Shown: positions 20,114 to 39,064 of the stretch, piece after piece
Layout of the letters: every line of letters begins with the position of its first letter
Numbering within the stretch: the first letter of the stretch is position 1
Assembly: GCA_041242255.1 (NCBI GenBank)
Contig: JBESAV010000001.1
Span: forward strand, 544,001 to 608,000
Direction: 5' to 3'
From: Candidatus Altimarinota bacterium
GTDB lineage: Bacteria; Patescibacteriota; Gracilibacteria; UBA1369; GCA-2718715
Length of the DNA: 64,000 nucleotides
The notes under the pieces: model-generated
Told to the model about the DNA's origin: nothing
Databases searched by the model: none
The model's input: only the letters and a program-made list of their open reading frames with translations
Position numbers and translations under genes: made by a program

Positions 20114-20115
20114 AA

Positions 20116-20628: not shown

Positions 20629-20631
20629 GCC

Positions 20632-20955
20632 ATGAACTGGTTCTTCCCAATCCATTATTTCCTACACTTAATTTTCCCTGGAGTAGTTGCATACGCAGCT
20701 ACTCCTAAGCTTCCTCATAAATGGTGGAAAGTTTACATGGTTTTACTAGCAACAATGATCATCGACTTAGACCATCTCCTAGCGACACCAATCTTCGATC
20801 CAAATAGGTGCAGTATAGGTTTCCACCCACTTCATAGCCCAATAGCCATCGGAGTTTATGTCCTGATGATTTTCATCCCAAACTTCTGGGTTAGGGTAAT
20901 TGCCACAGGACTAATCTGGCATATTTTAGTCGACTTATTAGACTGCATGATATAA
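20632..20955 (+). CDS. DUF6122-like small membrane protein
   Basis: IDLDHLLATPIFDPNRCSIGFHPLHS. Confidence 0.75.
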   Translation: MNWFFPIHYFLHLIFPGVVAYAATPKLPHKWWKVYMVLLATMIIDLDHLLATPIFDPNRCSIGFHPLHSPIAIGVYVLMIFIPNFWVRVIATGLIWHILVDLLDCMI

Positions 20956-20979
20956 TTTAAATAAATTTAAAAATAAATA

Positions 20980-21429: not shown

Positions 21430-21437
21430 ATATTGAA

Positions 21438-21464
21438 AAACCCTTTAATAGAAATTAAAGGGTT
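21438..21464. terminator. hairpin between convergent genes
   Basis: aaccctttaat...attaaagggtt inverted repeat. Confidence 0.65.
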
Positions 21465-21481
21465 GGTGTCTTCATCGACGA

Positions 21482-21814
21482 TCAATTAGAGAGATAAATT
21501 ATAAATTCTTGTTTAAGGAGCTCCAGCCTAGTACAAAGTATATTATGTTGACTAGATAAATCTCCATATGCAAGAATTGACTTAATGAAGGACAAATAAT
21601 CCAATAAATAATCATATGCATGGGCATATTTATTTGAAATTTCTTCATCATCTTTCATTAGTTCTGTTAACTCAATGATGAAGTCATTTCCAAGGTACTT
21701 GCTTGCTTCCTCGACAGTTAGTGCAGTAACCTTGAGATCCAAGTCACTTGTAAGTTTTTCCATTATGCTTCTGCCTTCACGAATTATAACTTCAAGATTC
21801 CTTTCCTCAGTCAC
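21482..21814 (-). CDS. hypothetical protein
   Basis: 110 aa; GTG start with GAGG Shine-Dalgarno; own consensus promoter. Confidence 0.6.
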   Translation of the reverse strand: MTEERNLEVIIREGRSIMEKLTSDLDLKVTALTVEEASKYLGNDFIIELTELMKDDEEISNKYAHAYDYLLDYLSFIKSILAYGDLSSQHNILCTRLELLKQEFIIYLSN

Positions 21815-21905
21815 TTTAAACCTCTCTTGTTGATGTAAATGAACTTAACAGTTGTAGTTTAAGCACGGCTCACCGACTTAATCTAATCAATCTGTTAACA
21901 TTTCG

Positions 21906-21933
21906 ATTATACAAGCCTGTGTAAGTTTGTCAA
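21906..21933 (-). promoter_or_regulatory. consensus promoter TTGACA-16-TATAAT
   Basis: Reverse complement reads ttgaca aacttacacaggcttg tataat. Confidence 0.75.
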
Positions 21934-21959
21934 GTAATGTGTTTATCTAAATAACTTAC

Positions 21960-22265
21960 ATGAGTTTTATCAAAGAATTAAGATTAGCACCTGAGAAAGG
22001 CTAAATGGATTGGTTAAATATAGAAAAGAACATATATTGATGAGTAAGAAGTAATTCTTGGGAGCAAGTCGAATCTTTAATTGTTAGTCCAGAAGCTGAC
22101 CTTTCAGCTAGTATCTATGTAGATGAACAAGAATTTATACAAAGCTATATTTCAGAGGATGTATTTGAAGACTCAGTTGTTAATTACGGTGACTGCACTA
22201 GGTCACAATTAAATGCCCTAGGAAGTAGGTTAGAATCAATCGTCAACAGCACTTTAGACAAATAG
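21960..22265 (+). pseudogene. probable pseudogene (102 codons, 3 internal stops)
   Basis: One frame reads MSFIKELRLAPEKG*MDWLNIEKNIY**VRSNSWEQVESLIV...STLDK*. Confidence 0.4.
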
Positions 22266-22312
22266 ATCTTTTGCTAGATGAGATTCAATACTAAGTAAAC
22301 CTAGTGTAGTAT

Positions 22313-23566
22313 GTGTTTACTTTATTTCAAAATACGTATTCTCACCCAACAACTATGACCAAAGCAAACCTATTCTCTCTAACAATCACATTAATTCTTT
22401 TCAGCATATCAGGCTGCACTTTTCAAGACCAAACCTCCAACACAAATGAAATCAACAAAAATCAGCCAGAGCTAACCAGCGAAATCACAACTCAAGAAAT
22501 AGATAGCATAAGCGCTGAGAAACCTGAAGAAACAGTAGAAGATTCAGATCAAAATCAAGAGCCAGAAGAGCCAGAATTTATTCTTCCTGACGTAGACTAC
22601 ACATCCCTACCAACCAAAGATGTGACTGTTGATTCTGTAAAGTTTTTCCAAGAACCAATAGAATTAGAAAGTATCGATGGATTAGAAAATACTGAGTTTG
22701 GTTATGTGACTGAGGGCAAATATAAAGATTATATTTTTGGTAATTCAAGAGAGTACTATCAGTTCAGTGATGCTCTGACTATGTTCTACTTGAGACCTCC
22801 AGATCAAAAGACTTTATATTACATTTCTGAATACCCTAGGTTTCAAGAAGAAAATCAAAGTATTTCAGATTTTAGTATTCCAAGTCTTGAGTTCCAAGAA
22901 GAAAGCATTACTGCCAAAGGTAACCAAATAACAACAGATGGTAGATTGTATTATGACAAGTATATAATAGATGAAATTCAAGATTATGAGACTGTAAGTG
23001 CAGAAGACACAGGTTACACCCTATACAAAGATGGTTGGGCCTTTTACAGAATCATTCAAGATGACTTTTATATTCTTTACCAATACATCCCTCAAGATGA
23101 AGAGCTAAAAAGCCTAATCGAATCTATGTCTAGCTTCGAAAACAAAAACCATTGGAGATACTTTTTAATGCAAAGGTATGACGATGGATATATCACAACA
23201 GTTAACACCGGATACATGGGACTATTTGATGACCAAGGTCTAATTCAAGGCAAAGAGAGTACTCTCAATTTCGATAACCTAGAGCTAATCCATGATGGTC
23301 CAGAACTAAATTTATACACAGTAAAAGAATTCCTAGATAATGAGGATTATGAGTCTCAACTTTTGCAAGAATTGTGGACAACATATCAAGATGATTTAGC
23401 ATCTATTTCAGCAAGTATAGCAAATGGAGAACAAAACATAAGAAATATTCCAAATGTACCAAAAGATGAATTCCTAACCATTAACCCTATGTTAATCCAA
23501 ACAGACAATATGGGTGAATTCTCAGTATACATACGCTCCGACATAGTTCAGCCATTTGAGGCTTAA
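22313..23566 (+). CDS. acidic putative lipoprotein
   Basis: Lipobox ISGC after a hydrophobic stretch; the real start may be the internal MTKAN. Confidence 0.7.
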   Translation: MFTLFQNTYSHPTTMTKANLFSLTITLILFSISGCTFQDQTSNTNEINKNQPELTSEITTQEIDSISAEKPEETVEDSDQNQEPEEPEFILPDVDYTSLPTKDVTVDSVKFFQEPIELESIDGLENTEFGYVTEGKYKDYIFGNSREYYQFSDALTMFYLRPPDQKTLYYISEYPRFQEENQSISDFSIPSLEFQEESITAKGNQITTDGRLYYDKYIIDEIQDYETVSAEDTGYTLYKDGWAFYRIIQDDFYILYQYIPQDEELKSLIESMSSFENKNHWRYFLMQRYDDGYITTVNTGYMGLFDDQGLIQGKESTLNFDNLELIHDGPELNLYTVKEFLDNEDYESQLLQELWTTYQDDLASISASIANGEQNIRNIPNVPKDEFLTINPMLIQTDNMGEFSVYIRSDIVQPFEA

Positions 23567-23609
23567 AATCAACGAATATACGACAAACGATACTTATTAA
23601 TCTAATTAG

Positions 23610-24287
23610 ATGAATATAATCAAACGATATTTGTACATAGCCATAGGCTTATGTACATATTCCTTGCTAGCAATACTAATTCCCAACTTTTTAGGTATAG
23701 AAACTAGTTCTCATGGAATAACTTTTGATGATTTTGATTTTTCCACTTTCTTATTAGTTTTTTTGGTTTTTATAATTTTGATATACAAAGCAATCTACAC
23801 TAAGTCAGAATACAAATACATTATTCTAATAACTTTTATGTATGCATTTTTGTTTGTTTCATATAGCACTCCTCGATTTCAAGTTATTGAATTATCCGAT
23901 CAACATAAAGATCGTAAGGTAAACGTGAATGGATCAGAGTCAGGTGCAATGAGTTATAGTTTCACTAATTTATATCCTGCAAATGATCAATATATAGTTA
24001 CTCATGAACCACCATTTACATTAATACATTCAAAAGTCGATCAACCATATAATCATGATTTAGAAGCTCAACCACACTGGTTAAATTCAAGGGTCTCAGG
24101 CTTTCCCTTTTTATGGTTCTTAGACCCGATTGGAGCTAGCGTACGTGCATCTATAAATTACCTACATTTCTTATTAAACATGATTGTTTATTTCATAGTC
24201 TTTTTAATTCCAAATCTTTTAACCAAGCTAATATTCCAAAAATTTACACCTTTAGTTTTTGGAGACCAAGATATAGAACATTCTTGA
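23610..24287 (+). CDS. hypothetical multi-pass membrane protein
   Basis: About 4 hydrophobic helices; GFPF motif. Confidence 0.65.
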   Translation: MNIIKRYLYIAIGLCTYSLLAILIPNFLGIETSSHGITFDDFDFSTFLLVFLVFIILIYKAIYTKSEYKYIILITFMYAFLFVSYSTPRFQVIELSDQHKDRKVNVNGSESGAMSYSFTNLYPANDQYIVTHEPPFTLIHSKVDQPYNHDLEAQPHWLNSRVSGFPFLWFLDPIGASVRASINYLHFLLNMIVYFIVFLIPNLLTKLIFQKFTPLVFGDQDIEHS

Positions 24288-24687
24288 TATTTTCTAATTT
24301 TTTTAGATAAGGCAAAACTTCCTTAGGAAACAAATTTATTTCTTCGACTTGATTTAAATCTATAATCTTAATATCAGTCAAAACTTGTTGCTTTTTTTCA
24401 GGATCAAAACCAAGCTTATAATTTTCATCGAGCGTTTTACAAAGTATATAAACTTCCAAACCAAAGCTTCCTTTATATTCTGTTTCTCTAACAAATACAA
24501 TTCTCTCAGCTTTAGCTTTTACATTTATTTCCTCATCGATTTCTCTCTCTATTGCTTCAAATAAAGATTCATTTCCTTCAACACCTCCTCCCGGAAAAAC
24601 ATAATTTGTACCAAAGGTATCGCTATCATGCCTCACCAAAACAATTTTATTTTCATTGATAATTATACCTCTTACTCCAACTTTCAT
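24244..24687 (-). CDS. NUDIX hydrolase
   Basis: Nudix box PGGGVEGNESLFEAIEREIDEE. Confidence 0.9.
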   Translation of the reverse strand: MKVGVRGIIINENKIVLVRHDSDTFGTNYVFPGGGVEGNESLFEAIEREIDEEINVKAKAERIVFVRETEYKGSFGLEVYILCKTLDENYKLGFDPEKKQQVLTDIKIIDLNQVEEINLFPKEVLPYLKKLENIKNVLYLGLQKLKV

Positions 24688-24773
24688 TTTCTAATTTAAA
24701 TTACATTAATCTTCTCAACCCCCAAACAAACTCATCCATAAATTTATCTTTCTTCATATCATTTTGAAAAACA

Positions 24774-24851
24774 GAAAAGTAGTATCAATAATTTAGAAAG
24801 AGACCTTCGCAAGTATAAAAAACATTTAAATCCAAACTCGGTTCACCAAAG
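24774..24851 (+). pseudogene. remnant of a serine recombinase 3' end with degenerate att core
   Basis: Aligns by eye to 37221-37300 at about 64/80 nt, ending cggttcaccaaag versus tggtgcaccagag. Confidence 0.8.
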
Positions 24852-24975
24852 TAGACACATTTCGAACTGAATATTATGAAGAAATTATTAATTTACAAAA
24901 GCTAACTTTAGAAAAATACAAAGTAATTAAATTAAAAAGTACTATCAGAGCTAACTTGTACATTTATTATTTCAA

Positions 24976-25524
24976 ATGCTAGACTGCAGTCAAATAAAAA
25001 ATGAAAAAATGAGAGTTGGAGTAGGATTACTTTTAGACGAAGATTGTCATAATTCGATTAGAGAATTGCAAATAAACCTTTTAAGTAGAGGTCTTATTAA
25101 GAGTCCATTTATTCAGGAACCACATATAACAATCAAGTCACCTTTCGAGATTTCTACTATTCAAAATTTAGCTAACTACTTAGATGAAAAATTTGATAAT
25201 ACAAAAGAGATCATTGTAAAAACAAGTTCTTTAGATTTATTTGATAAAAATATTTTATATCAAGCGGTATCAAAAAACAAAATTCTACTAGATTTACATT
25301 ATGATCTGATCAAGTTTTGTAATGATAAAGGTGAATATGAAGGAGAAAATAAAGTTTTTCACATAACGATAGGGAGATCATTATCGAAGCAAATATTAGA
25401 GGAACAGATTAAATTTAAAAAAAATACCTGCAGTTTAATAGGGGTCGGTATTTTTTTATATAACGAAGAAACTAAATCTTGGATTGTAGTTTACAAAAAA
25501 AAGTTTATTGATTCTGACAATTAA
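24976..25524 (+). CDS. 2H phosphoesterase (2'-5' RNA ligase/LigT-like)
   Basis: Two HxT motifs (PHITIK, FHITIG). Confidence 0.85.
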   Translation: MLDCSQIKNEKMRVGVGLLLDEDCHNSIRELQINLLSRGLIKSPFIQEPHITIKSPFEISTIQNLANYLDEKFDNTKEIIVKTSSLDLFDKNILYQAVSKNKILLDLHYDLIKFCNDKGEYEGENKVFHITIGRSLSKQILEEQIKFKKNTCSLIGVGIFLYNEETKSWIVVYKKKFIDSDN

Positions 25525-25569
25525 CAATAATATCATCATAGAGATTTAAATATATTTTTAAGAAAAAAG

Positions 25570-27348
25570 ATGAAGTTACAAGAAATTTTACAAGTTGAAG
25601 AGAGTTTAAGCATACCTGAACAAGTTAATCGTGGAGATTTAGAATCAATTCAATCAAAAATACATGAAAGGGTAAGGCTTGTTACGGCAGCACTACCGTA
25701 TATAAACAACGTACCTCATTTAGGGCATATGGCAGGGAGTCATATTCCAGCTGATATTTTTGCCAGGTTTTCAAGAATGAAAGGCTATAATACTAAATTT
25801 ATAGGTGGTTCAGATGAGCATGGAACACCATCTGAGTTGGCTGCTGATTCATTAGGTCTTAATCCTGAAATCTTTTGTGACAAACTCCATGAGGTACATA
25901 AACAAGTTTATGATTGGTTTGATATATCTTATGATTACTATGGTAGAACATCAGAGTATAGGCATAGTCAAATAGTTGAATCATTTTTTTTAGGTTTACT
26001 AGATAATGATTTTATAGCAGAGAGAGAAGAACATATGTTTTTTGATATAGAAAAAGATAGATTTTTACCTGGAAGATACGTTTTAGGTACATGTTCCAAT
26101 TGTGCCAGCACAAATATGCCATATGATCAATGTGATAACTGTGGGGTTCTTTTTAATACTGATAACTTCCTCGATCCAGTTTCAACCTTATCTAACAGTA
26201 CTCCTGAGATTAGAAGCACTAAGCATTTATTTATTGATTTACCACTTCTACAGCCAGTAATTGAAGATTGGTTTAAGAGTAAAAAAGACTGGAATACTCT
26301 AACAAGAGGAATTACAAGCTCCTGGCTTAATCAAGGTCTTGAGCAAAGAAGCATAACAAGGGACTTGAACAGAGGGGTTCATGTCAATTATCCAGGTTAT
26401 GAAGATAAAGTTTTTTATGTATGGTTTGAGGCTCCAATTGCATATGTTTCTTTTTCAGATTCAGTTGGTGAAATTCAAGAATTTTGGGAGTCCAATCAAA
26501 GTGAAGTTTTTCACTTTTTAGGCAAAGATAATATACCTTTTCATACTATAATATGGCCTTCTATTATAGAGGGTTCTAATATTGGAATAAATAAGCCTGA
26601 AAAAGTTATTGGTTATTCTTATCTGAATTATGAAGGAGAAAAATTCTCGAAGAGCAGAAATGTAGGAGTCTTTTGTGATAAGCTCTTAGAATCCGACTTC
26701 CCAGTTGATGTATTAAGAGCATATATAACGCTTATTTTACCTGAATCTTCAGACGCAAATTTTAACTGGGAAGATTTAGTTTCCAAAATTAACAATGAGG
26801 TAATAGCAAACTTTGGTAATTATATTAATAGAGTCTTATCCTTTTTATTTAAGAAAAAAGGGGGGCAGTTAGATTCAATCCAAGCAGAGGATTTTGATGA
26901 CTTAGATAGGAATTTTATACAAGATATTTTCAACCTATTTTTAGAAATTGATGCAGATTTAGAAGACTGTAATTTTAAAAAAGCATTTAAAGGTGTTTTA
27001 AGCTTATCCTCATTAGGAAATAAGTTTTTCCAAGATTCCAAACCTTGGAAATTTATTTCTGAAAATCCTGATTACGTAAATAGAAAATTATTTTTATGCG
27101 TTTATTTAATAAAGGTACTAGGAATTGTTTCATCCCCTTTTATACCAGAAACATCTAACACAATCATGAAAATGTTAGGGAAAGCAAATAGTAATTGGAT
27201 GGACGCCTTAGATTACAGTGATATCAGTGGTATAAAGATAGACAAAAACCCAGAGTTGCTCTTTAAAAGATTAGAAGATGATTTTATAGAGAGTATGAAA
27301 GATTCAACTGAAGGTCATACAAACCTAGCTAGCTATTTCTATGAATGA
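25570..27348 (+). CDS. metG: methionyl-tRNA synthetase (archaeal/eukaryote-like type), island-borne
   Basis: ALPYINNVPHLGH, GSDEHGTP, Zn knuckle CxxC..CxxC, YVWFEAP, GKDNIPFH, KFSKS. Confidence 0.9.
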   Translation: MKLQEILQVEESLSIPEQVNRGDLESIQSKIHERVRLVTAALPYINNVPHLGHMAGSHIPADIFARFSRMKGYNTKFIGGSDEHGTPSELAADSLGLNPEIFCDKLHEVHKQVYDWFDISYDYYGRTSEYRHSQIVESFFLGLLDNDFIAEREEHMFFDIEKDRFLPGRYVLGTCSNCASTNMPYDQCDNCGVLFNTDNFLDPVSTLSNSTPEIRSTKHLFIDLPLLQPVIEDWFKSKKDWNTLTRGITSSWLNQGLEQRSITRDLNRGVHVNYPGYEDKVFYVWFEAPIAYVSFSDSVGEIQEFWESNQSEVFHFLGKDNIPFHTIIWPSIIEGSNIGINKPEKVIGYSYLNYEGEKFSKSRNVGVFCDKLLESDFPVDVLRAYITLILPESSDANFNWEDLVSKINNEVIANFGNYINRVLSFLFKKKGGQLDSIQAEDFDDLDRNFIQDIFNLFLEIDADLEDCNFKKAFKGVLSLSSLGNKFFQDSKPWKFISENPDYVNRKLFLCVYLIKVLGIVSSPFIPETSNTIMKMLGKANSNWMDALDYSDISGIKIDKNPELLFKRLEDDFIESMKDSTEGHTNLASYFYE

Positions 27349-28795
27349 TGTTTTAAGTAATAATTATAGAAAATGGCTTCACGAAGTTTTAGACTTATCT
27401 ATAGATTTCAAATTAGATAGTAGAGTTAACAAAAAAATAATATCCAATAGTGACATTAAAAAACTTTTAGCAAGAAAGTTACCATTTGAAGGAATAGATC
27501 TTGATGATATTTTAGATAGTTTTAAAACAGAAGTTATGCCATTTTGCACCAACTTTTCATCTAAAAACTTTATGGGATTCCCAGATTCAGGAAACTCTGT
27601 TGCAGCATTGGGAGCTTCAATTATAAAAGATTTTTTTCAACAAAATATAATAAATCAATCTTTTTGTTCACCCTCGGGAACATTTATAGAGATAAATGTT
27701 ATAAACTGGTTAAGAGATTTAATTGGTTATGAAACGAAAGATAACATATCAAGTATTATGGATGTGGGAGGTATTATCACAAACGGTGGAACTATGAGTA
27801 ATGCTATAGGTATTATGTTAGCACGTGAAAATAAGTCTCCCAATACACTTGCTAACGGCGTAAAGGCACCATCAAGATATAAGATAATTGTTCCAAAAGG
27901 TATTGGTCACTACAGTGTCAAATCCGCTCAGATGTGGCTTGGATGTGGTAACAATTTAATTGAAGTTCCAACTATCAATTTCAAATATGACTTAGAAAAA
28001 CTCAAAGAGGCACTTAATAATAATAAGGGTAATGTAATGGGGTTAGTAGCTTATGCTGGAGATAGTAGAACAATGACATGCGATGATTTTGATGAAATTT
28101 ACAACCTTGTGAAATCTATTGATGAAAATATATGGTTGCATGCTGATGCATGTCATGGGTTTTCCTTAAGTTTTAGCGAGCAGTTAAAAGAGAAAATTAA
28201 AGGTATCAATAAATTTGATAGTATAACAATTGATCCTCATAAGGTTATGTTAACTCCATATGTAATTAGTGCCATTTTAGTTAAAGATCCTGCTAAACTT
28301 AAAAGTGTTTCCTCTATATCTGACTTAATAATGAAGGAGCAATTCGCATTTGGTCAAATAACTCCATTCATAGGAAGTAAGTCTTGGGAGTCATTAAAGT
28401 TATGGTTTATGATGTTAAATTATGGAAAAGAAGGTTTACAAAATATGGTAAATGAAAGACACAATAGGGCAAAGTACTTACATGAAAAAATTAAAGAAAA
28501 TGAGAATTATATAACTCTTAATGAAGTAGACATTAATTCAGTAATGTTTATGGTTAAACCAAGTAAATGGGATGGTGATATTATTAAACTAAATAATTTT
28601 AATAGAAAAATTTACGACAAAATAATAGAAGATGGTTTATATTATTTACATACATTTCCAATTGAAGATTCAGGCGTTATATCTAAAGGAGAAACTCTAA
28701 AACCTCTAAGATATATGTCTGGAAATCCAAATTTAAAAGAAAAAGATATAGATGATATGATTAATTACATTGAAAAAATAAGTAAAAGTTTATAA
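27341..28795 (+). CDS. group II PLP-dependent amino-acid decarboxylase
   Basis: GGTMSN, GHYSV, WLHADACHG, SITIDPHK (PLP lysine), LKLW. Confidence 0.9.
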   Translation: MNDVLSNNYRKWLHEVLDLSIDFKLDSRVNKKIISNSDIKKLLARKLPFEGIDLDDILDSFKTEVMPFCTNFSSKNFMGFPDSGNSVAALGASIIKDFFQQNIINQSFCSPSGTFIEINVINWLRDLIGYETKDNISSIMDVGGIITNGGTMSNAIGIMLARENKSPNTLANGVKAPSRYKIIVPKGIGHYSVKSAQMWLGCGNNLIEVPTINFKYDLEKLKEALNNNKGNVMGLVAYAGDSRTMTCDDFDEIYNLVKSIDENIWLHADACHGFSLSFSEQLKEKIKGINKFDSITIDPHKVMLTPYVISAILVKDPAKLKSVSSISDLIMKEQFAFGQITPFIGSKSWESLKLWFMMLNYGKEGLQNMVNERHNRAKYLHEKIKENENYITLNEVDINSVMFMVKPSKWDGDIIKLNNFNRKIYDKIIEDGLYYLHTFPIEDSGVISKGETLKPLRYMSGNPNLKEKDIDDMINYIEKISKSL

Positions 28796-29508
28796 TGTTA
28801 GAATCTATAATAGATACGTTAGAAACGCAGCCCTTCCCTACTATTATATATGGCTCTTTTGCAACAGATAACAATACACAAAAATCAGATTTAGATTTAT
28901 TCTTTATAGATGATACAACAGACTCAGACGAAAACTTTGAATCTTTACTTTGCCTAGTTTTAGATATTCATTCTCGTCATGGCCTAAAAATAGACAATGA
29001 GGTACCTTATAAAAATAAACTAATAGTAAATAGTTTAGATTTAAGAAAATCTTTAAGGAGCGAAGGATTTAACATTTCTAATGATGATTTATACATCCCA
29101 GAAATAGAAAAAAGTCATACTTTTTTAAATTCTTATAAAGTAAGATTAAGATTAATATTTAATGCTTTTACAACTCCACACATTATATTAAATTGTTTGG
29201 ACGAGAGCTTATCTGAAATGAGAAGTAGTTTTGAAATTAAATTAGTCTTAATTCTATTAGCGCTACACTCATCACAAGAAAAAATTACTTTTTCTTCTCT
29301 ATTGCATAAAGCTTTATATTCGGAAGCAGGAGCATCTGAAGACATGTATTTAGGCTATAAAATCAATGAAACTGTAATTAATAATCTAAAGATGATAATT
29401 TCAAGCACATTAAAAAAACTTGAAAATACTGGGATTGTTTGTTTGACGAAAAATCAAATAGTACTTACAGTTGATAAGGAAGAATTACTCTCTATTATAA
29501 AAAGTTAA
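28795..29508 (+). CDS. Pol-beta-like nucleotidyltransferase domain protein
   Basis: IIYGSFA...SDLDLFFI motif; TAATG coupling to the upstream gene. Confidence 0.8.
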   Translation: MLESIIDTLETQPFPTIIYGSFATDNNTQKSDLDLFFIDDTTDSDENFESLLCLVLDIHSRHGLKIDNEVPYKNKLIVNSLDLRKSLRSEGFNISNDDLYIPEIEKSHTFLNSYKVRLRLIFNAFTTPHIILNCLDESLSEMRSSFEIKLVLILLALHSSQEKITFSSLLHKALYSEAGASEDMYLGYKINETVINNLKMIISSTLKKLENTGIVCLTKNQIVLTVDKEELLSIIKS

Positions 29509-29512
29509 TATT

Positions 29513-30412
29513 ATGGAAAGACCTTTTGATTATTCTATATCTAGTGAAGGAATAGTAAAATCATTCGATTTTGATTATGATTTAATCCAAAGTAGGGGTG
29601 ATCAAATTGGGGTTAGTAAATTGATAAGTAATCCAGTATTTGTAGTGGGATCACCAAGGTCAGGCACAACGGTTTTAGGAAATGTATTATCTTTACATGA
29701 CAGGATAGGTACTGGGGAAGAATCTTTATTTTTACTTCATCTTTTTAGAATTTTTTCAGATCTTCACAAAGGAGATAATAGAAGAAAAACCAGAAATCTA
29801 TCTGAATATATCGAAGAAGATGATTTATTATTAAATATGCAAGAATTTTCAGATAGGATAATGGGTAGTTTACTCCAAAGAAAAAACAAAGATATTTATC
29901 TTGATCATACTCCTTGGTATGGATCAATTTCTGGATTTATAAAATTATTGTATTCTGATTCAAAATTTATACATATAATTAGAGACGGACGTCAAGTGGT
30001 ACGCTCTTTAGGAGAATCATACAACAAAGGTTTTTCGTGGGCTGGTAAAAGTTTTGAGCATAGAGTAAAGATTTGGGTTTCTCAAGTTCAAAATTGTTCC
30101 AAAATGCAGCAACATTTTGAAAGTGATTATTTAGAAGTTTATTATAATACACTTCATGATACTCCTCTTAGTTTATTCAACAGTATATTTTGTTTTTTAG
30201 GTTTAGAAAATAATGATGAAATATTAGATGGGCTATCCGTTAGCTATGCCACTCCAGTTTCAGGAATTACTAAAGAAGAGATGAGTGTTGGTTATGACAA
30301 TAATGGATGGCCTCAGAATTGGACTAGTGAAGAAATAGATACATTTTATTGCTTAGCCTCTGATTTAATGGAAGAAAAGTTTGGTGACAAATGGGATACC
30401 ATCTATATATAA
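29513..30412 (+). CDS. PAPS-dependent sulfotransferase
   Basis: 5'-PSB motif VVGSPRSGTT and 3'-PB motif IIRDGRQVVRS. Confidence 0.9.
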   Translation: MERPFDYSISSEGIVKSFDFDYDLIQSRGDQIGVSKLISNPVFVVGSPRSGTTVLGNVLSLHDRIGTGEESLFLLHLFRIFSDLHKGDNRRKTRNLSEYIEEDDLLLNMQEFSDRIMGSLLQRKNKDIYLDHTPWYGSISGFIKLLYSDSKFIHIIRDGRQVVRSLGESYNKGFSWAGKSFEHRVKIWVSQVQNCSKMQQHFESDYLEVYYNTLHDTPLSLFNSIFCFLGLENNDEILDGLSVSYATPVSGITKEEMSVGYDNNGWPQNWTSEEIDTFYCLASDLMEEKFGDKWDTIYI

Positions 30413-30530
30413 GTTTCAAAAAACTTTTAACTAGTTATTATTTCTATTTAATAACACACAAGTATTCACTATATTGTTATTAAATCATACTCTAACTTTA
30501 TATTTTTATAATCTGTATTTAAACTTTTAA

Positions 30531-30762
30531 ATAGAATTACACAGTGTTTATGACGAAAAAGTTTTGTACATAGCCAAAAAACCGTTCTGCTACATCATCA
30601 AATGTAACAACATGTCGGACTGGTGCTCAGAAACTCATCTCTCTTGAACCAATGATAAAGCACTTAATCACCACAGATATGACAGAGTTTATGTCTGTAG
30701 ATACTAGCAAATGCTATGCATTAATAGAGGACCACCAAAAAGAATTAGAGGTAATATTTTAG
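30531..30762 (+). other. att junction: recombinase 3' remnant joined to displaced tail of the intact recombinase
   Basis: Left half reads IELHSVYDEKVLYIAKKPFCYIIKCNNMSDW. Core TGGTGC is at 30621-30626. Right half is open for 46 codons (GAQKLISLEP...EVIF*) in the same register as recombinase codons GA. Confidence 0.65.
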
Positions 30763-30829
30763 ATAGCATAGAGGAATAGTCATTATTATCTTCTAAGTAG
30801 GCATTAATAAGCAGGGGTATTCTTAAACC

Positions 30830-32059
30830 TTATAGTCTCTTATTCACTTTATTAAATATTTCTTGACTATATTTATTTGTAGATTTTAGTTTAGAGAGGT
30901 AGTAAACATATTTTGTAGTGTATTCTTGTATATGAAATTTATATGCATATTCTTTTACTAAGACATACAAGTCACTAGTTAATGAATTAATTTTATCACA
31001 ATCACTTAACGCTCTTATAGTATCTTGATGGTTAATGATTGTATCCATAATTTCTTTAGTAACTGTATATAGTGAATTATATTCATCATTAAAAAATTTT
31101 TCAGTACTGCTGACACTTGATTCTACTAGATTATTTAGATGTACATGCATTATTTTCCATATACCTTCACCTAGTGATATTAAGTATCCAGAAGTATTAT
31201 TATTTACACTCTTTAACATTTGTTTATAGATATCTAAAAATCTAATAAAATGTAATGTATCACTAAAGACAGCATATTGGCTATCATGTATTGAGGAATA
31301 TATTTCATGCTTTAGAAATCGTGGGCCTAGTAGAAATTCTTTTGCATAAATATCATCATTATCGAATAGTATAGAGTCTTCATTTAATATAGATCGATGT
31401 ACAATTGATATAACAAGATTATCAATTGGGTCAGTATATCTTAAATCAGGATTACATTCTAATCCCATATATATAGAAAATATGAATTCTTGTGAGTCAA
31501 CTACTACATAATCCATAAATTTTTCATTACTTGGTATTACCCAAGATAGAATTGAATACAAGTTATCTTCTGTAGAGTTAACAACAATTTGATCTATGTT
31601 GAAAATAAATAAATCTACTACATTTAAGAATCTATTTTTAGATTTATAACTAATTTCATCAAATATAAAACGCTTAAGTTTATCTTTATCTATAAAGTTA
31701 AAATCCAAATGCCTGGTAGTAGAAAAGTGAATGAAAATAATTAACCCAATGATTAAAAATAAGAAAATGATCATATCCAATACAACTATAAATAATGGAT
31801 TTATAACTAAGGCATACAAATTTTCATATCTTAAAATTATAAACGGAAAAAACAATGCTAGGTACTTAAAAATTAGAACAATTAGGGCCATGCCTGTCCA
31901 AAAAAATAAAGCTTGGTTTATTAGCTTCTTATATAGACTCATCCTAAATTTCCACTCATTAGTTCTAAGCTGATATGCTGCTAATACAATACCAATAACT
32001 GTCACAAAGCCTATTAGATCTATTCCTATATAAGAATTTAGTAACTCATTTCGAATCAT
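30830..32059 (-). CDS. hypothetical membrane protein (3 N-terminal TM helices + helical domain)
   Basis: 409 aa, extremely AT-rich; downstream of and co-oriented with the OLD gene. Confidence 0.65.
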   Translation of the reverse strand: MIRNELLNSYIGIDLIGFVTVIGIVLAAYQLRTNEWKFRMSLYKKLINQALFFWTGMALIVLIFKYLALFFPFIILRYENLYALVINPLFIVVLDMIIFLFLIIGLIIFIHFSTTRHLDFNFIDKDKLKRFIFDEISYKSKNRFLNVVDLFIFNIDQIVVNSTEDNLYSILSWVIPSNEKFMDYVVVDSQEFIFSIYMGLECNPDLRYTDPIDNLVISIVHRSILNEDSILFDNDDIYAKEFLLGPRFLKHEIYSSIHDSQYAVFSDTLHFIRFLDIYKQMLKSVNNNTSGYLISLGEGIWKIMHVHLNNLVESSVSSTEKFFNDEYNSLYTVTKEIMDTIINHQDTIRALSDCDKINSLTSDLYVLVKEYAYKFHIQEYTTKYVYYLSKLKSTNKYSQEIFNKVNKRL

Positions 32060-32153
32060 AATATAGTGCGATTGTTAAAATAGATCTAGCTAGGGCTTTA
32101 TAAATTTATAGTCTTTTTTGTACATGTCATAGTTTAAATTTTAATATCAAATA

Positions 32154-33815
32154 TTAAGTTAGCTTAATATGGTTAGCTTTAGCAATGATAGAGCAAATAT
32201 TATCCATTTTATCTGAAACATCATACAGATCTTTAAGGTTATCCTTTGTAAAATATTCTACAAAATTCTTAGCATATTTAATTTTATTTGCTTTTAATTT
32301 TTCCCCTTCTCCTTTCGATATTTTATCCAAAGTATTAGCTATTGGGGTAAATCGACGAGGCTGTTGGCTAATCAGCTTATCGTAAAAAGATTCGAGTGAT
32401 TCTTTAGGAATGTAGTTTTCTGTTTCCTTACCATGAGTAATCCACAGATAAAAATTGTTTTCTTTTTTATATGCTTCTTTAATACTATTAACTCTTTTTT
32501 TGAGAGGGTCATTAGTGTTTTTTTTATCGCTATCGCATATAACTATAGAATTTCGATTTGCTTTTAAAATCGAAAGTTTTTCGTCAGGTATTTCTTCATC
32601 AACTCCGTAATGTGCAAGTAATGATCGAGCTGTAAATAAAAATTGATAATGAATATTCTCTATTAATTTACCATCAGAGAAAATATCTAACATTTTTTTA
32701 TAGTAAATTCTATCGGATGGACCCTCAACCCATATAACTGCATTTGACTGTAATATATCACTAGCCTTTGCTCCAATATCATCTATCACTAAAGAGTGAC
32801 TACTATAGTTTAATACATTTGATAGGATTGTCTTTGAACCTTCTTTATATAAATGAATTAGATTTGTATTTTTATCTCCAGAAAAGAAGTTAATAGTCAC
32901 AGGTGAATGTGTTGTTAAAATGAAAGTACAACCTTGTTCACTTAGTTTTTTTATGTAATGCAGAATATTTCTCTCCAGGTTAGGATGAGTATTGTTTTCT
33001 AATTCCTCCAATAAAAAAATACAGTTCGTAATCTTCTTTTTTGTAATATCTGGACCTAAAATTGTCACTACCAATAAAAATAAAACAGTTTTTATTCCGC
33101 TACCTGTATTTGAAATGGGTATAAATTCGCCATTTTCTGTTTCCAGTCCTATTTCCCATAAATCAGTACCTTTTTGATTAAAAACCCTTATGTCAGTATA
33201 TTTAGAATCTGGCGAAACAATTTTATTTAATTCTTTTAAAAGAGTTTCTGTTACCAGTTTATACCTTGCACTCCCATATACTTCTTCCTGCAGGTACAAC
33301 CTTATAATATTTGTTATGCCAGTTCCGTTTGATTTGATTGTAAGTTTATTAAAATTTGGACCACTAACAGAACTAATAAAAATGTTATTTTTTTGTTCGC
33401 TTATGATGTTTCGGTCAGCATCAATTCTAAAACCTATTAAATTGTTTAGCTTATTATCTAATTTATTTAAGATTTTTTTTTGCTCATTATTCGTAAGTTC
33501 ATCAAATTTTATATTATTACCTCCATTATATAATTGAGATTTAACATAGTAGTTAACTGGTATAATATCATTCACAGAATTAAGTACTTTAACTGATTCA
33601 GAATCAATATCATCTTTTTGTATTGTTAAATAGAGTTTAGCCCCATTCGTCCTAATTTCTTTATCTAACAACTGTTCTATTGCATCTAGATAGGTGCTTT
33701 TACCTACATTATTTTTACCGATAATCAGATTTATAGGCAAAATACTTTGAATATTTTCTTCTTCAAAGTTTAACCCTTTGTATTTTTTAACTCCAATAGA
33801 AATTTGTAACGACAT
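32154..33815 (-). CDS. OLD-family ABC ATPase-TOPRIM nuclease (probable anti-phage)
   Basis: Walker A GKNNVGKS; GSG signature; LEELENNTHP; TTHSP; TOPRIM WVEGPSD and CDSD. Confidence 0.88.
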   Translation of the reverse strand: MSLQISIGVKKYKGLNFEEENIQSILPINLIIGKNNVGKSTYLDAIEQLLDKEIRTNGAKLYLTIQKDDIDSESVKVLNSVNDIIPVNYYVKSQLYNGGNNIKFDELTNNEQKKILNKLDNKLNNLIGFRIDADRNIISEQKNNIFISSVSGPNFNKLTIKSNGTGITNIIRLYLQEEVYGSARYKLVTETLLKELNKIVSPDSKYTDIRVFNQKGTDLWEIGLETENGEFIPISNTGSGIKTVLFLLVVTILGPDITKKKITNCIFLLEELENNTHPNLERNILHYIKKLSEQGCTFILTTHSPVTINFFSGDKNTNLIHLYKEGSKTILSNVLNYSSHSLVIDDIGAKASDILQSNAVIWVEGPSDRIYYKKMLDIFSDGKLIENIHYQFLFTARSLLAHYGVDEEIPDEKLSILKANRNSIVICDSDKKNTNDPLKKRVNSIKEAYKKENNFYLWITHGKETENYIPKESLESFYDKLISQQPRRFTPIANTLDKISKGEGEKLKANKIKYAKNFVEYFTKDNLKDLYDVSDKMDNICSIIAKANHIKLT

Positions 33816-33867
33816 AATTGAGTTTTATATTGATGACAGAATACCATTTTCCTGCTAGATTATAAAT

Positions 33868-34004
33868 GTCGCACAACTAGGAATTTTAAGCCACATAAGG
33901 TGCTCCCTTGTTTATATGAACAAAGGTGGGCATCTAGCCATATAGGCATACCTTTGTGGTTACCTAGTTGGGCGACCTAGGTGCCCTCTTTTGGAATTAC
34001 CTAG
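33868..34004 (+). ncRNA. candidate structured RNA / 5' leader
   Basis: Nested stems gtcgc-a-caactagg/cctagttg-g-gcgac and agccaca-t-aaggt/acctt-tgtggtt enclose two hairpins. G-U pairs favour the + strand. An ATGACA-17-TGcTAGATT promoter-like sequence lies just upstream. Confidence 0.55.
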
Positions 34005-34029
34005 CAGATCATTAATCTAATTTATAATT

Positions 34030-35334
34030 ATGTCACAACCTGTATTTACAAGTAAGTATTTTGATATCTACAAAGATAGGATAGAGATCAAAATGTTCTT
34101 AAATAAAGACACTATTTTTATTTCCTCTATACACAGTATGAGAAAAAGACTCGGTGGGATTAAAGTTCATACCAGTGGAAAAGATTATATTCTCCCTCAT
34201 AAAAATCCTGCAAAAGTAATTGAAGTAATATCAAAGCTAAAAAATGGCGAGGAAGTTATAATCGAAGAGAAAAAGAAAGTAAAAACTAAGAAGGTTCAAG
34301 AAGCTACAAATCAAGAAAGTAACCCAACAAAAGAAGATAATACAGTCTGGTACAAGACATGGTGGTACATGTGTATTCTTTTTTTCTTTACGATAGTATT
34401 ATGGTTTATTACCATACCAGTTTATACGTATTTGGCTTACTCAAATAAAGATAAAGAAGACGGTCCACACTACAAGAAAGTTTTAACTGCATTGGTAGTA
34501 TTTTCTATTTTAATAGTTCTACCTGTTAGTTGTAGTCAATCATTACAAGAAGATGAAGCTATGTCTTCGATTGAAGTTATGATACAAGAAGGACGACTAG
34601 ATGATGCGGCTGATAGTATGATTAGTACTCAGTATAAATACTCAGATAGATACAAGGCATTAGCTAAAGAACTTAATTACGCTGCACCATCATATGCAAA
34701 GGTTTTATTGCTATCTCTTACTGATGACCAGATTAAAGATTTAGAGTCTGGTACATTAGCTATAAATAAATCAAGTTACAGCACTATAAATGATAGATTG
34801 AAAGAGAACCTTAATACACTTTTACCTGATTTAGAGGAGATACAGAAAGAACATGATCAACTTGCCTTACTTAATAAATTAGGTGAAATAGAGTACAGTG
34901 TTATCCAAAAAGATGAATACAAAAATCATGATGTATATGTACTAGAAGTTCCTAATGTTATAAACCAAACAGTCCTGGAGTCCTTTGCTAGAAGCTTCGA
35001 GGAAAACCTTTGTGAAAGAGATTGTTTCATCAATCTATATAGTATTGAAGATGCATATTGGACCAGAGAAAAGAAAAGCGATTTAGGAAGTGCTTTTATG
35101 GATGAGTCAGCTGATTTGGTTATATCAGGGCAAATATCACAAGAAGAAGTTTTAATAAGAAATAGAAGGTATCTTCTGGAGTTAGATGAAGAATACTTAG
35201 AATATATAGCAACAAACCACATAGGAAGGTTGGAGCTAGATTTTAGTGGAGGGCCATCTATTTACTATCCATATCCAATAATATCTGATCTTGACTTACT
35301 CGATGAAAGAAGACAGGAATTAGAGAACTTATAA
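34030..35334 (+). CDS. membrane protein with N-terminal PH-like domain and extracytoplasmic region
   Basis: Short beta-rich N-terminus; WYKTWWY followed by two TM segments; cargo of element A. Confidence 0.65.
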   Translation: MSQPVFTSKYFDIYKDRIEIKMFLNKDTIFISSIHSMRKRLGGIKVHTSGKDYILPHKNPAKVIEVISKLKNGEEVIIEEKKKVKTKKVQEATNQESNPTKEDNTVWYKTWWYMCILFFFTIVLWFITIPVYTYLAYSNKDKEDGPHYKKVLTALVVFSILIVLPVSCSQSLQEDEAMSSIEVMIQEGRLDDAADSMISTQYKYSDRYKALAKELNYAAPSYAKVLLLSLTDDQIKDLESGTLAINKSSYSTINDRLKENLNTLLPDLEEIQKEHDQLALLNKLGEIEYSVIQKDEYKNHDVYVLEVPNVINQTVLESFARSFEENLCERDCFINLYSIEDAYWTREKKSDLGSAFMDESADLVISGQISQEEVLIRNRRYLLELDEEYLEYIATNHIGRLELDFSGGPSIYYPYPIISDLDLLDERRQELENL

Positions 35335-35377
35335 GAAGTTAAACACATAATCTTAAATTGAATATAGCTTACAAAAT

Positions 35378-35410
35378 AAAGCACTCTGGCTTCATGCAGT
35401 GTGCTTTTTA
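35378..35410 (+). terminator. probable terminator
   Basis: aaagcac...gtgctttt inverted repeat after ORF 34030. Confidence 0.55.
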
Positions 35411-35563
35411 TCATCCACTTCTTATAACTTTACTTATACATAAGTATATATAAACACATATGTGCTCAATGCCATACAGTTGTACTTAAAATGCAATAAA
35501 TAGAGCCAAAATGGCCACTTATATATGCTACAATGCACCCATATTATTTAACTTTTACATTCC

Positions 35564-35728
35564 ATGTCAGATACCAATGACAACAATGTTTACAATGCTA
35601 TCGAAGTGATCCGCAATGCAGGAACAAATCCTGACGGTCCCGATGGTGTTGTTGATAGTAGTGGAGATTATGTGAAGTTCGACCAAAACAGACGTCGGAC
35701 CTCTATCTCCAGAGATCAACAATGGTAA
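35564..35728 (+). CDS. small unannotated ORF (54 aa) upstream of recombinase
   Basis: MSDTNDNNVYNAIEVIRNAGTNPDGPDG...QQW*; preceded by a TGcTACAAT extended -10 at 35526-35534. Confidence 0.45.
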   Translation: MSDTNDNNVYNAIEVIRNAGTNPDGPDGVVDSSGDYVKFDQNRRRTSISRDQQW

Positions 35729-35764
35729 GCATAAAATGTAGAATTTAATTAGGTACAATCATCA

Positions 35765-37309
35765 ATGAAATGGGTAATTTATGTTAGAAAGTCTAGTGAG
35801 GACGCAAACAAACAGGTAAGGTCCCTCAAAGACCAAATCAAGGTATGCCAAGAACTAGCAAAAAGGGAAGGCTACAATGTTGTAGAGGTATTCCAAGAGA
35901 TAAAGTCTGCTAAAAAATCGGGTAATAGACCAGAGTTCAACAGAATGTTAGATGGTTTAAGGCAGAACAAATATCAAGGAATACTATCATGGGCACCCGA
36001 TAGACTTTCTAGAAACATGAAGGAAGCAGGGGAGATCATCGATATGCTCGACAATGAAGTTATCCTCGATCTAGACTTTGCAGCACACGCATTCGTTAAT
36101 GATTATAATGGGCTAATGACGTTAGGTATTTCCTTTGTGATATCAAAGCAATATTCTGATAGGTTAGCCCATAACATCTCCAGAGGTAACAAACAAAAAC
36201 TAAAAGAAGGTAAGCATTTAGGTCGATATGTACACGGGTATATAGCTGATGATGTTACACAGCATTACCAGATAGATGAACGTATTGCAGAGAATGGAAA
36301 GACATTTTATGAGCTGATAAAAGAAGGATTCCAAATGCGACTAAAAGGTAACTCCTTAGCAACCATCACCAAATACATCAATGATAATGGGTACTATAGA
36401 GAGACTAAGCAAAGCAAAACTATCCAAAAAATGACACAGGGAAAACTAAGCAATATGTTTAAGGACCCAATATACTATGGAGAGATTCATACATATGAAG
36501 AACCGATAGACCTTGTAGAGATACATTGCTTTTTACCAATGATCACAAAAGAGGAATACGAGATGCTACAAGACTATAAACCAACCGGTATCAGTTCACA
36601 TACACATAATTGGCCATTCATAGAGCTAGTTAAATGTGGAGACTGTGATTGCAATATGCGTGCAGGTAAATCTACATCAGGGACAGGGCAGAAGTATTTG
36701 TATTACTGGTGTGAAAATAAAGAGTGTGGAGATAAAAGAAAGAAACAAGGCAAGACAAAGTTCCCTACTATCAGAGCAAAGGTTGTTATAGAAGCCTTAC
36801 AAAATGCTCTAGCAGATCTAAATCTAGATAAAGCTATATACAAGAACTATGGAACACAATACGCAGAGGAGGTCCATAAGTACAAAACAAATATTGCCAC
36901 ACAAAAGAGAGCAGCTAGAAGAGCCCTTAATAACTTCGAGAAGAAAAAAGAAGAGCTAGAGTTCAAAAAGATACGTGATGGGCATTCATGGTCCAAATCA
37001 GAGCAAGCTAGATACAATAAAGAGATAAAGTTCTACAACAAAAAGATCAACACCTTAACTAGGAATATTGATGATCTAGAAAAATCTATGCCAAAAGAAG
37101 TAGACCTAAAAAGTTTCTTGAACTCGTTGAATATGGCTTCTACAAGGTTTCCTCGATATGATTTAGAGACGATGGACTCATTAGCCAAAAATGTGTTCTT
37201 GAACTTAGTTGTTAAGGACGGAAAAGTAGCATCAATAAGCTATAAAGAGCCCTTTGCAAGTATGCCAAAAACGGCTAAATCCAGACTTGGTGCACCAGAG
37301 AGGACTTGA
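35765..37309 (+). CDS. large serine recombinase (resolvase + recombinase + Zn-ribbon + coiled coil)
   Basis: YVRKSS catalytic Ser, RPEFNRM, DRLSRN, CGDC...YYWC; last codons overlap tRNA-Leu. Confidence 0.95.
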   Translation: MKWVIYVRKSSEDANKQVRSLKDQIKVCQELAKREGYNVVEVFQEIKSAKKSGNRPEFNRMLDGLRQNKYQGILSWAPDRLSRNMKEAGEIIDMLDNEVILDLDFAAHAFVNDYNGLMTLGISFVISKQYSDRLAHNISRGNKQKLKEGKHLGRYVHGYIADDVTQHYQIDERIAENGKTFYELIKEGFQMRLKGNSLATITKYINDNGYYRETKQSKTIQKMTQGKLSNMFKDPIYYGEIHTYEEPIDLVEIHCFLPMITKEEYEMLQDYKPTGISSHTHNWPFIELVKCGDCDCNMRAGKSTSGTGQKYLYYWCENKECGDKRKKQGKTKFPTIRAKVVIEALQNALADLNLDKAIYKNYGTQYAEEVHKYKTNIATQKRAARRALNNFEKKKEELEFKKIRDGHSWSKSEQARYNKEIKFYNKKINTLTRNIDDLEKSMPKEVDLKSFLNSLNMASTRFPRYDLETMDSLAKNVFLNLVVKDGKVASISYKEPFASMPKTAKSRLGAPERT

Positions 37310-37374
37310 ACCTCCACCCAGCTAAGCCGGACTAGCCCCTCAAGCTAGCGCGTCTACCATTCCGCCACTGGTGC
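37288..37374 (-). tRNA. tRNA-Leu(GAG)
   Basis: GCACCAGTGGCGGAATGGTAGACGCGCTAGCTTGAGGGGCTAG...GGTTCAAGTCC...GGTGCACCA; long variable arm; encoded CCA. Confidence 0.97.
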
Positions 37375-38104: not shown

Positions 38105-39064
38105 ATGCCTCACCAAAACAATATCAACCAACAAACCCAAAACCTACCCCAAGACTTTCTCCAAAAAGTCCAATCTATTTTTCCAGACCCAAAAACCCAA
38201 GACCAGATCCTAAATAGCCTAACCAGCAAGCCAACCACATTCCGATTAAACCCACTTCAGAATAACCCAAAAGAAACTATAGCTTCACTCAGGTCCCAAG
38301 GATTTCAACCTAAAGAATCATCTTTTCACCCACATTCTTTTCACCTCACATTCAAGACCCAGAAGGATTTACAACATACTCAAGAGTACAAAAAAGGACA
38401 CATATACCTTCAAAGCTACGCCAGCCAGATCCCAGTAATAGCCCTTGATCCACAACCACAAGAAAAAATCCTAGACATGACAGCAGCCCCAGGTAGTAAA
38501 ACCTCTCAGATATCTGCCTACACAGACAATAAATCAGAGCTTCACGCCAACGATGTGAACACCATCCGCCTCGAAAAACTCAAACACAATCTCAAAAAAC
38601 TAAATGCCCAAGCCACAGTCCACAACCTCCCGGGCACAGACCTACATACTAAATTCCCAGATAACTATTTCCATAAAATCCTCCTAGATGCGCCATGTAG
38701 TGGAGAAGCTCGTTTTGATATTAATAATCCCAAATCCTATCACTACTGGTCAAATCACCGAGCAGAAGAATTCCACCAAAGACAACTCAAGCTCTTAAAG
38801 TCAGCCTGGCAACTGCTGGCTCCAGGGGGAATTCTAGTTTATTCCACCTGCACTTTTGAACCTTTAGAGAACGAAAAAGTCATCCAAAAACTATCCCAAG
38901 GAAATCCAGAATCCCTCAAAATTATCCCTATCAAAATCCCAGGCCTAAAAACACTTCCAACCCTCCAAGAATTCTCCAAATCCGAACTTTCCAAAACAAT
39001 CCGCATCTACCCAGACAACCACTTCGAGTCCTTCTACGTAGCCAAACTCCAAAAACAAAAATAA
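38105..39064 (+). CDS. RsmB/RsmF (NOL1/NOP2/Sun) RNA m5C methyltransferase
   Basis: LDMTAAPGSKT, ILLDAPCSGE, LVYSTCT. Confidence 0.93.
   Translation: MPHQNNINQQTQNLPQDFLQKVQSIFPDPKTQDQILNSLTSKPTTFRLNPLQNNPKETIASLRSQGFQPKESSFHPHSFHLTFKTQKDLQHTQEYKKGHIYLQSYASQIPVIALDPQPQEKILDMTAAPGSKTSQISAYTDNKSELHANDVNTIRLEKLKHNLKKLNAQATVHNLPGTDLHTKFPDNYFHKILLDAPCSGEARFDINNPKSYHYWSNHRAEEFHQRQLKLLKSAWQLLAPGGILVYSTCTFEPLENEKVIQKLSQGNPESLKIIPIKIPGLKTLPTLQEFSKSELSKTIRIYPDNHFESFYVAKLQKQK

Follow-up and report, generated by a model that had tools for sequence, protein, structure and literature searches.

The window analysed here is a 64,000-nt stretch of the genome of a Candidatus Altimarinota bacterium (GenBank assembly GCA_041242255.1, contig JBESAV010000001.1; G000:C1:544001-608000 in our numbering). 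The genome is one contig of 1.0 Mb and is 98.5% complete, and the metagenome runs that contain DNA of this window are marine or seawater. From 24.8 to 37.3 kb, where the window reaches the 3′ end of a tRNA-Leu(GAG) gene, the GC content is 28-31%, versus 36-39% in both flanks. Reading towards the tRNA, this interval consists of the remnant of an element (E0) at junction J24, an island without a recombinase gene (E1), the core of a second junction (J30), and an island with an intact recombinase gene (E2) that ends in the tRNA itself at the third junction, J37 (Table 1). We consider it highly probable that the interval is a tandem series of small integrative islands, assembled at the 3′ end of tRNA-Leu(GAG) by tRNA-targeting large serine recombinases (LSRs).

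Table 1. Features of the array at tRNA-Leu(GAG), in window coordinates.
Feature	Position	Strand	Remarks	Source
J24 (E0 remnant)	24762-24844	+	decayed LSR2-like 3′ end; stops, 2-nt indel	
E1	24845-30620	+	older island, ~5.8 kb, between J24 and J30; recombinase lost; resembles a cis-mobilizable element (CIME)	
E1 left arm (P1′)	24845-24982	+	45-codon open tail and stop, in the LSR1 frame	
E1 cargo	24976-25524		2H phosphoesterase	Pfam
E1 cargo	25570-27348		second methionyl-tRNA synthetase (MetRS), full length, 434 bits	Pfam
E1 cargo	27341-28795		pyridoxal phosphate (PLP) decarboxylase	Pfam
E1 cargo	28795-29508		nucleotidyltransferase	Pfam
E1 cargo	29513-30412		sulfotransferase	Pfam
J30	30531-30626	+	last ~30 codons of a putative second-lineage recombinase (LSR1), then core (30621-30626)	
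E2	30621-37287	+	tRNA-proximal island of 6,667 bp; TGGTGC at either boundary (30621-30626, 37288-37293)	
E2 left arm (P2′)	30622-30762	+	46-codon open tail and stop; frame continues LSR2 across the core	
E2 cargo	30830-32059	-	409 aa, no family match; many hydrophobic stretches by eye	
E2 cargo	32154-33815	-	553-aa AAA_15/AAA_21 ATPase of the AriA/GajA/PtuA/Old kind, defence-like	Pfam
E2 cargo	34030-35334	+	434 aa, no family match	
LSR2	35765-37309	+	intact large serine recombinase, 514 aa	Pfam, PHROG
tRNA-Leu(GAG)	37288-37374	-	integration target	ARAGORN

The recombinase of E2, LSR2, is a large serine recombinase by its domain content, with predicted activity. Its catalytic Resolvase domain (PF00239, E 2.2e-21) covers residues 4-150 and is accompanied by Recombinase (PF07508, 1.7e-08) and Zn_ribbon_recom (PF13408, 1.2e-06) domains; the protein matches a PHROG integrase family (6.7e-57), and residues R8, S10, C291, C294, C316 and C321 are invariant in an alignment of 20 homologues. 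The last 22 nt of the LSR2 open reading frame (ORF) overlap the 3′ end of tRNA-Leu, with the stop codon (TGA) lying in the complement of the T-loop. The hexamer that bounds E2 on both sides, TGGTGC, is the + strand form of the final six bases of this tRNA, GCACCA. A first-pass annotation of the window had placed a core at 37288, at 30621 and, in degenerate form, at 24839, and TGGTGC, TGGTGC and CGGTTC (24839-24844) are found at these positions; of the longer core that it proposed, TGGTGC(ACC), the TGGTGC part agrees with a metagenome joint that shares six letters (described below), while the ACC extension does not hold. The junctions of E2 have only the hexamer in common. Crossover is predicted to fall within TGGTGC, the complement of the GC-A-CCA tRNA end, and we infer GC at core positions 5-6 as the likely crossover, this being the sole dinucleotide compatible with both joints.

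Beyond the core at the far end of E2, the LSR2 frame remains open for 46 codons from 30622 (47 if counted from one codon upstream), versus 11 and 8 codons in the other frames, and the J30 frame, when carried to 24845, is likewise open for 45 codons. The first 12 nt of the E1 left arm mimic the tRNA acceptor/T-stem at 10/12 positions, as read by eye; inverted symmetry of the att arms, also judged only by eye, is unconvincing. Neither tail has a Pfam match.

At the outer end of the array, J24 aligns with J37 in two blocks separated by a 2-nt indel (24762-24816 with 37209-37263, 80%; 24818-24856 with 37267-37305, 77%), giving ~79% DNA identity overall to the end of LSR2 plus the end of the tRNA. 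Stops in the recombinase frame of J24, read by hand, mark it as a pseudogene remnant. With a family C-terminus profile made from 86 homologues, from which the near-identical protein of this genome was left out, J24 comes 5th genome-wide (E 0.71), and Rfam at a relaxed threshold finds no tRNA-like match over 24650-25000. From the alignment and the profile rank, we take the likeness to be beyond chance and J24 to be the genuine decayed 3′ end of an LSR2-like gene, which assigns its left side to the LSR2 lineage.

The inner junction, J30, reads IELHSVYDEKVLYIAKKPFCYIIKCNNMSDWCSETHLS followed by a stop. Among the 327 TGGTGC sites of the genome, the 40 codons upstream of J30 rank 2/327 in all three profiles, behind J37 only. 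When the 38-aa J30 peptide is compared with 205 genomes of the same order, the top non-self match (genome G052, E 0.0145) is the C-terminus of a recombinase that abuts a tRNA-Trp, and the two have a common PF-x11-W spacing; another match is the C-terminus of a recombinase abutting a tRNA-Asn. Eleven non-self loci were fetched, and these are two of them. In the J30 lineage, the TGG at the tRNA end serves as an in-frame codon for W, and the left side of J30 is assigned to a lineage distinct from that of LSR2. We accept J30 as a junction because of this anchored rank, the match to the tRNA-Trp recombinase, and the breakpoints of metagenome contigs.

These breakpoints were observed in Logan contigs aligned to the window at a likeness threshold of 88, a setting in which joints below a likeness of 95 or with a side of <30 letters often come from other organisms. 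The strain in one run (X5) is ~97% identical to ours (195 differences over 7,381 letters in a contig that covers 21811-29190 and crosses J24), and three of its contigs depart from the window at or near J30. One of them (a) passes from 30620 straight to 37288, leaving out 6,667 bases, and six letters at the joint fit either side. Another (b) runs from 29250 to 30625 and resumes at 24844 for 72 letters, such that 24844-24915 is repeated right behind the J30 core, before continuing for ~790 letters unlike the window. In the third (c), likeness begins at 30556 after 255 unlike letters, of which the last 30, translated by hand in the frame of J30, read ..LLSNFQVDGK and run on into the window's KVLYIAKKPF; ..LLSNFQVDGK is the C-terminal motif of the recombinase family, intact. 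The simplest reading of these contigs is that, in X5, a further J30-lineage element comes after E1; it would share the left arm of E1, carry different cargo, and have an intact recombinase abutting the tRNA at the hexamer. A circular form of E1, which the joint from 30625 to 24844 might also indicate, was considered and dropped, as only 72 letters fit past the joint; joint (b) seems to reflect an adjacent element that shares the left arm of E1.

A second run (X6) marks the same places. A 2,457-nt contig (depth 75) has 52 unlike letters, starts exactly at 30621, retains 30621-30828 with 14 differences (~93%), and then departs from the cargo of the window; a 7,421-nt contig (depth 80) has the LSR2 gene at its end (47 differences over 1,726 letters) behind unlike cargo; and a short contig covers 30556-30626 before diverging. 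Positions 30556, 30620/30621 and 30626 are marked independently by the two runs, which come from two studies, and the tRNA-proximal slot is held by a different occupant in a related strain. Two other runs (X3 and X4) have contigs that match the window, none of them with a joint. The parts of the window that are uncovered in X5 (~31-35 kb) and the small shares covered in X6-X16 were not used as evidence of absence or habitat. Outside the array, an X5 contig skips 318 bases (21493-21810) that match a 110-aa ORF at 21482-21814(-), a small strain-level gene difference.

The central proposal of the first-pass annotation is supported by these data. It had described a J24 about 80% identical to the LSR2/tRNA junction, a recombinase-like remnant at J30, and reading tails that interlock across the junctions, and it had explained them by two recombinase lineages that integrated one after another at a single tRNA, the older units keeping no more than their att arms and cargo. 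The test that it named was whether relatives break at the predicted cores, which is where the contigs of X5 and X6 do break.

Several observations nevertheless weigh against an array, and most concern J30. Genome-wide, the profiles give the J30 peptide non-significant E-values of 41-150; the DNA upstream of J30 is no nearer to J37 than that of other TGGTGC sites (rank 212/327), without likeness past the hexamer; and the + strand of the 1.0-Mb genome has 84 copies of TGGTGC, such that about one chance copy is expected in the 12.4-kb island. Rfam at a relaxed threshold finds no tRNA fragment over 30400-30850, the tRNA-like part of J30 is more decayed than that of J24 though J30 is expected to be the younger, and the margins of the anchored rank are small (scores of 5.8/7.2/9.0 versus 5.0/5.8/8.1 for the next site). 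One open tail by itself is weak, with a probability of 0.063 for at least 46 open codons from random non-coding positions, and the long-tail profile introduced below, run against the six-frame translation of the genome, detects neither the E1 nor the E2 tail. No candidate for a recombination directionality factor was recognised, and left ends are known in a minority of the family's loci because most are without an upstream repeat. If the J30 points are given full weight, together with the equally low GC of both halves, the locus could be a single 12.5-kb island (24857-37287) inserted once beside the old J24 remnant, with J30 a chance likeness in a convergent intergenic spacer. Such an island would leave unexplained why J30 ranks 2/327 when anchored, why its best match in relatives is a recombinase C-terminus at a tRNA, and why contigs of two runs start or end at 30556, 30621 and 30626, one of them linking 30620 to the tRNA, and we regard it as exceedingly improbable.

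The weight given to the contigs depends in turn on whether they are sound. Every joint rests on one contig aligned at threshold 88, the short side of joint (a) is 30 letters only, and the host flanks in X6 are almost without cover, all of which would suit joints that are metagenome assembly chimeras or DNA of unrelated organisms. We judge this very unlikely, as four independent breakpoints from two runs and two studies fall on three coordinates that had been predicted from the sequence alone, the depths at the X5 joints (~9) equal those of the flanks, and joint (b) shares 1 letter, so that no repeat could have misled a 31-mer graph. It is also conceivable that the array arrived ready-made, with E1 and E2 (or E0 and E1) moving as a composite unit through their outer sites. 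Composite transfer of this kind is described for tandem elements made of a CIME and an integrative and conjugative element (ICE; PMC5704250), and the equally low GC of E1 and E2 would agree with it. In X5, however, E1 lies beside a different element while the left flank is ~97% identical, which points to turnover of the tRNA-proximal slot independent of E1; we consider a ready-made array rather unlikely. Stepwise accretion at the tRNA remains our preferred reading.

For this accretion, we propose that every element carries its attP within the 3′ portion of the gene for its own recombinase and that recombination would cross over within the last six bases of the tRNA. On integration, the recombinase-side left arm would rebuild the tRNA end, the integrated recombinase ORF would end a few codons into the tRNA (...GAPERT, then stop), and the original last ~46 recombinase codons would stay behind at the opposite end of the island. 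Once rebuilt, the tRNA end would again be a target, and each newcomer would therefore push earlier islands outward. The three layers would then record increasing age, from E2, which is intact, through E1, which has kept its cargo and has had its recombinase cut to ~30 codons, to E0, of which a remnant of ~80 nt is left.

The LSR2 family as a whole is associated with tRNA ends. A protein search returned 467 homologues at E <= 1e-10, with a best non-self identity to LSR2 of 38%, and the named ones come from Peregrinibacteria, Saccharibacteria, Nomurabacteria, Parcubacteria and Kaiserbacteria. The C-terminus of many homologues reads ...G(A/G)P(E/G)(R/W)T, which is the complement of a tRNA end. 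One genome of the same order (G021) encodes a recombinase that equals, over 522/522 residues, a protein assigned to Candidatus Peregrinibacteria, which suggests that our host is a Peregrinibacteria-like member of the candidate phyla radiation. Among 14 loci scanned in the same order, a tRNA is present in 10; in 9 of these, the recombinase ORF overlaps the tRNA or continues through it, and in 1 it ends 13 nt short. Across 80 candidate-phyla loci from named genomes, 65 recombinase ORFs overlap a convergent tRNA by 11-69 nt (20-22 nt in 46 of those 65), with tRNAs for Pro, Leu, Met, Val, Ile, Tyr, Asp and Ala as targets, while several of the other 15 loci lie at contig ends. From these overlaps, we conclude that a whole clade of LSRs targets tRNA genes in candidate-phyla bacteria; no description of serine recombinases at tRNAs in these bacteria was found in the literature collection searched. 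A blastn search for junction repeats in the upstream 10 kb of the 65 tRNA loci gave mostly nothing above 12-13 nt, with clearer repeats at L060, L067, L120, L122, L123 and L126. Metagenome contigs held no close relatives of LSR2, the two loci found being at 32% and at 53% over 119 residues.

Two observations on the family stand apart from the array. At locus L009 (G025:C5), the recombinase frame has no stop for 858 aa: it crosses a convergent tRNA-Phe and continues for ~300 codons beyond it. Elsewhere in our genome, at G000:C1:636806-637060 and thus outside the window, there is a second recombinase C-terminal remnant (E 1e-5 and 4.5e-5) that reads into a tRNA-Trp (636993-637067, -); the Trp, Cys and Leu(taa) tRNAs near 637 kb are 640-850 nt apart here and close-packed in a relative (G003).

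The family also bears on whether integration splits the recombinase gene. About 10 of the 86 homologues with a located C-terminal motif bear tails of 55-65 residues after it, and a profile made from 8 long-tailed homologues, searched against 37,995 segments from the 80 loci, gave 11 matches, all with E < 3e-4. One match is the end of a long-tailed recombinase (L075, an ORF of 557 aa), and the other 10 are orphan ORFs of 46-78 codons that lie upstream of the integrated recombinase, 3.1-6.5 kb from the tRNA and all on the recombinase strand. For three orphan tails, pN/pS is 0.15, 0.35 and 0.10 (three non-independent pairs), values that point to purifying selection on the three tails compared. 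It is because orphan tails recur in the family, and not from the E1 and E2 tails alone, that we accept a gene split by integration. A frame test based on the longest shared word, which placed 3/10 in frame, was misled by a T-loop-like word in the left arms and was counted neither way. At L060, one open segment upstream of the intact gene reads as the recombinase C-terminal motif and then the tail; at L067, a recombinase-end remnant with an in-frame tail lies upstream of the intact gene; and at L075, two recombinases stand in tandem, the first with a full tail. Interlocked junctions therefore recur in other candidate-phyla genomes. For an attP inside a serine-integrase gene, the literature collection searched yielded only an engineering paper.

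The detachable tail suggests a simple means for an element to sense its own integration. We raise, tentatively, the possibility of two enzyme forms, one in the excised state with the ~46-residue tail and one in the integrated state with 6-7 tRNA-complement residues instead, in which case the tail swap could set direction or stability without a separate directionality factor. If this rather doubtful scheme were true, the left arm of a neighbour would restore a full-length frame to the upstream recombinase, as seen in L060 and L075, which could keep decayed neighbours mobilisable.

The array itself is a known type of structure, tandem accretion, and what is new is the enzyme class, the clade-wide tRNA specificity, and the detachable C-terminal tail. 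Among serine-recombinase systems, staphylococcal cassette chromosome islands (SCCmec and pseudo-SCC), which use CcrAB or CcrC, form head-to-tail stacks at the rlmH 3′ end, and some SCC-type islands have no recombinase and lie between short repeats of the target end. SCC composites are thus a serine-recombinase analogue of the stacking seen here, a likeness by analogy only, since an array at tRNA-Leu(GAG) is not an SCC by the rlmH/Ccr definition. Unlike in SCC, the recombinase gene here spans attP and is split on integration.

In streptococci, accretion of the ICESt1/ICESt3 kind is described as integration at a 3′ end, decay to an integrase-less, att-bounded CIME, and arrival of a newcomer in the regenerated site (PMC5704250). 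The same three steps are proposed here, and E1 fits the CIME description by its sequence: it is att-bounded, has no integrase or transfer genes of its own, and retains ~30 recombinase codons. Whereas the streptococcal elements rely on tyrosine integrases and conjugation, the enzyme here is an LSR and no transfer genes were recognised. Mobilisation of E1 in trans is plausible on this arrangement, and any present-day mobility of E1 is hypothetical.

Closest in setting are the tycheposons of Prochlorococcus, small marine cargo islands at tRNA genes, in which newcomers push older ones inward and leave degenerate integrases and partial tRNAs; 910/937 have a tyrosine recombinase and a minority an LSR (bioRxiv 10.1101/2020.12.28.424599). 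By comparison, the host here is a candidate-phyla bacterium of ~1 Mb, the serine recombinase is the rule of a clade (65/80 at tRNAs), and no replication module was recognised; the likeness is by description only. Archaeal SSV-type "suicidal" integrases are described as having the att site in the integrase ORF, targeting a tRNA, and having their gene split (PMC7253208). An attP within the ORF is likewise indicated here by the E1 and E2 tails and the 10 orphan tails, but SSV-type integrases are tyrosine recombinases, and only serine recombinase domains are found in our array. The split is said to leave the SSV gene inactive, whereas in our array only the last ~46 residues come off and the main piece retains every Pfam domain.

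Genomic-island surveys took tRNA targeting as a trait of tyrosine integrases, and this serine clade does likewise. For serine integrases, short sites suffice and no host factors are needed. Given these simple site needs and conserved, predictable tRNA targets, the family could help to engineer candidate-phyla bacteria, hosts that are almost without genetic tools. The array also explains how accessory genes, including the second MetRS with its possible small-molecule genes and a defence ATPase, can be gained and swapped in a 1-Mb cell, and public metagenomes show the tRNA-proximal slot turning over between strains.

As for the cargo, the MetRS of E1 is additional to a housekeeping MetRS elsewhere in the genome (G000 858881-859957), and one may speculate that the genes at 25570-30412 form a small-molecule pathway with a self-resistance MetRS. 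The ATPase of E2 matches AriA (9e-19), GajA (5e-16) and Old (1e-12) in PADLOC, whereas Pfam, PADLOC and PHROG return nothing for the 409-aa and 434-aa proteins of E2, and two small ORFs (35564-35728 and 35567-35758) have no family match in Pfam. No phage structural, replication or transfer genes were recognised by Pfam and PHROG across the proteins of the array.

Within the host's family, the tRNA-Leu end is identical in all relatives (n=7), none of which has an adjoining recombinase remnant, and the right-hand neighbour of the tRNA (the homologue of 38105-39064) is kept. The nearest left matches in the 5/7 relatives with contigs long enough are homologues of the window genes at 10898-12328 and 12391-12840, and in two of them (G004 and G007) the homologue of 10898-12328 lies within ~80 nt of the tRNA. 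From this synteny, ~24 kb rather than 12.5 kb is extra in our genome, which suggests a further ~12 kb of older inserted DNA to the left of the array (12.9-24.7 kb). No junction remnants were recognised in this region. Its genes (12860-24700) encode a PD-(D/E)XK nuclease, two TrmB-type regulators, a sigma70_r4/HARE-HTH protein, a multicopper oxidase, MauE/HMA, DUF3105, DUF6122 and DUF305, and the region resembles an older island with a link to copper. The 12-base word ACTGGTGCTCAG, which at 30619-30630 spans the J30 core and the first bases of the E2 left arm, occurs again at 13158-13169 within the ORF of the PD-(D/E)XK nuclease and in the same register (G-A-Q); this second copy may be chance or a pseudo-site. 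To the right of the tRNA, a rhodanese/UPF0176 protein (43313-44368) has its best named homologues in Bacteroidota (~64% identity) and not in candidate-phyla bacteria, and its gene may have been transferred.

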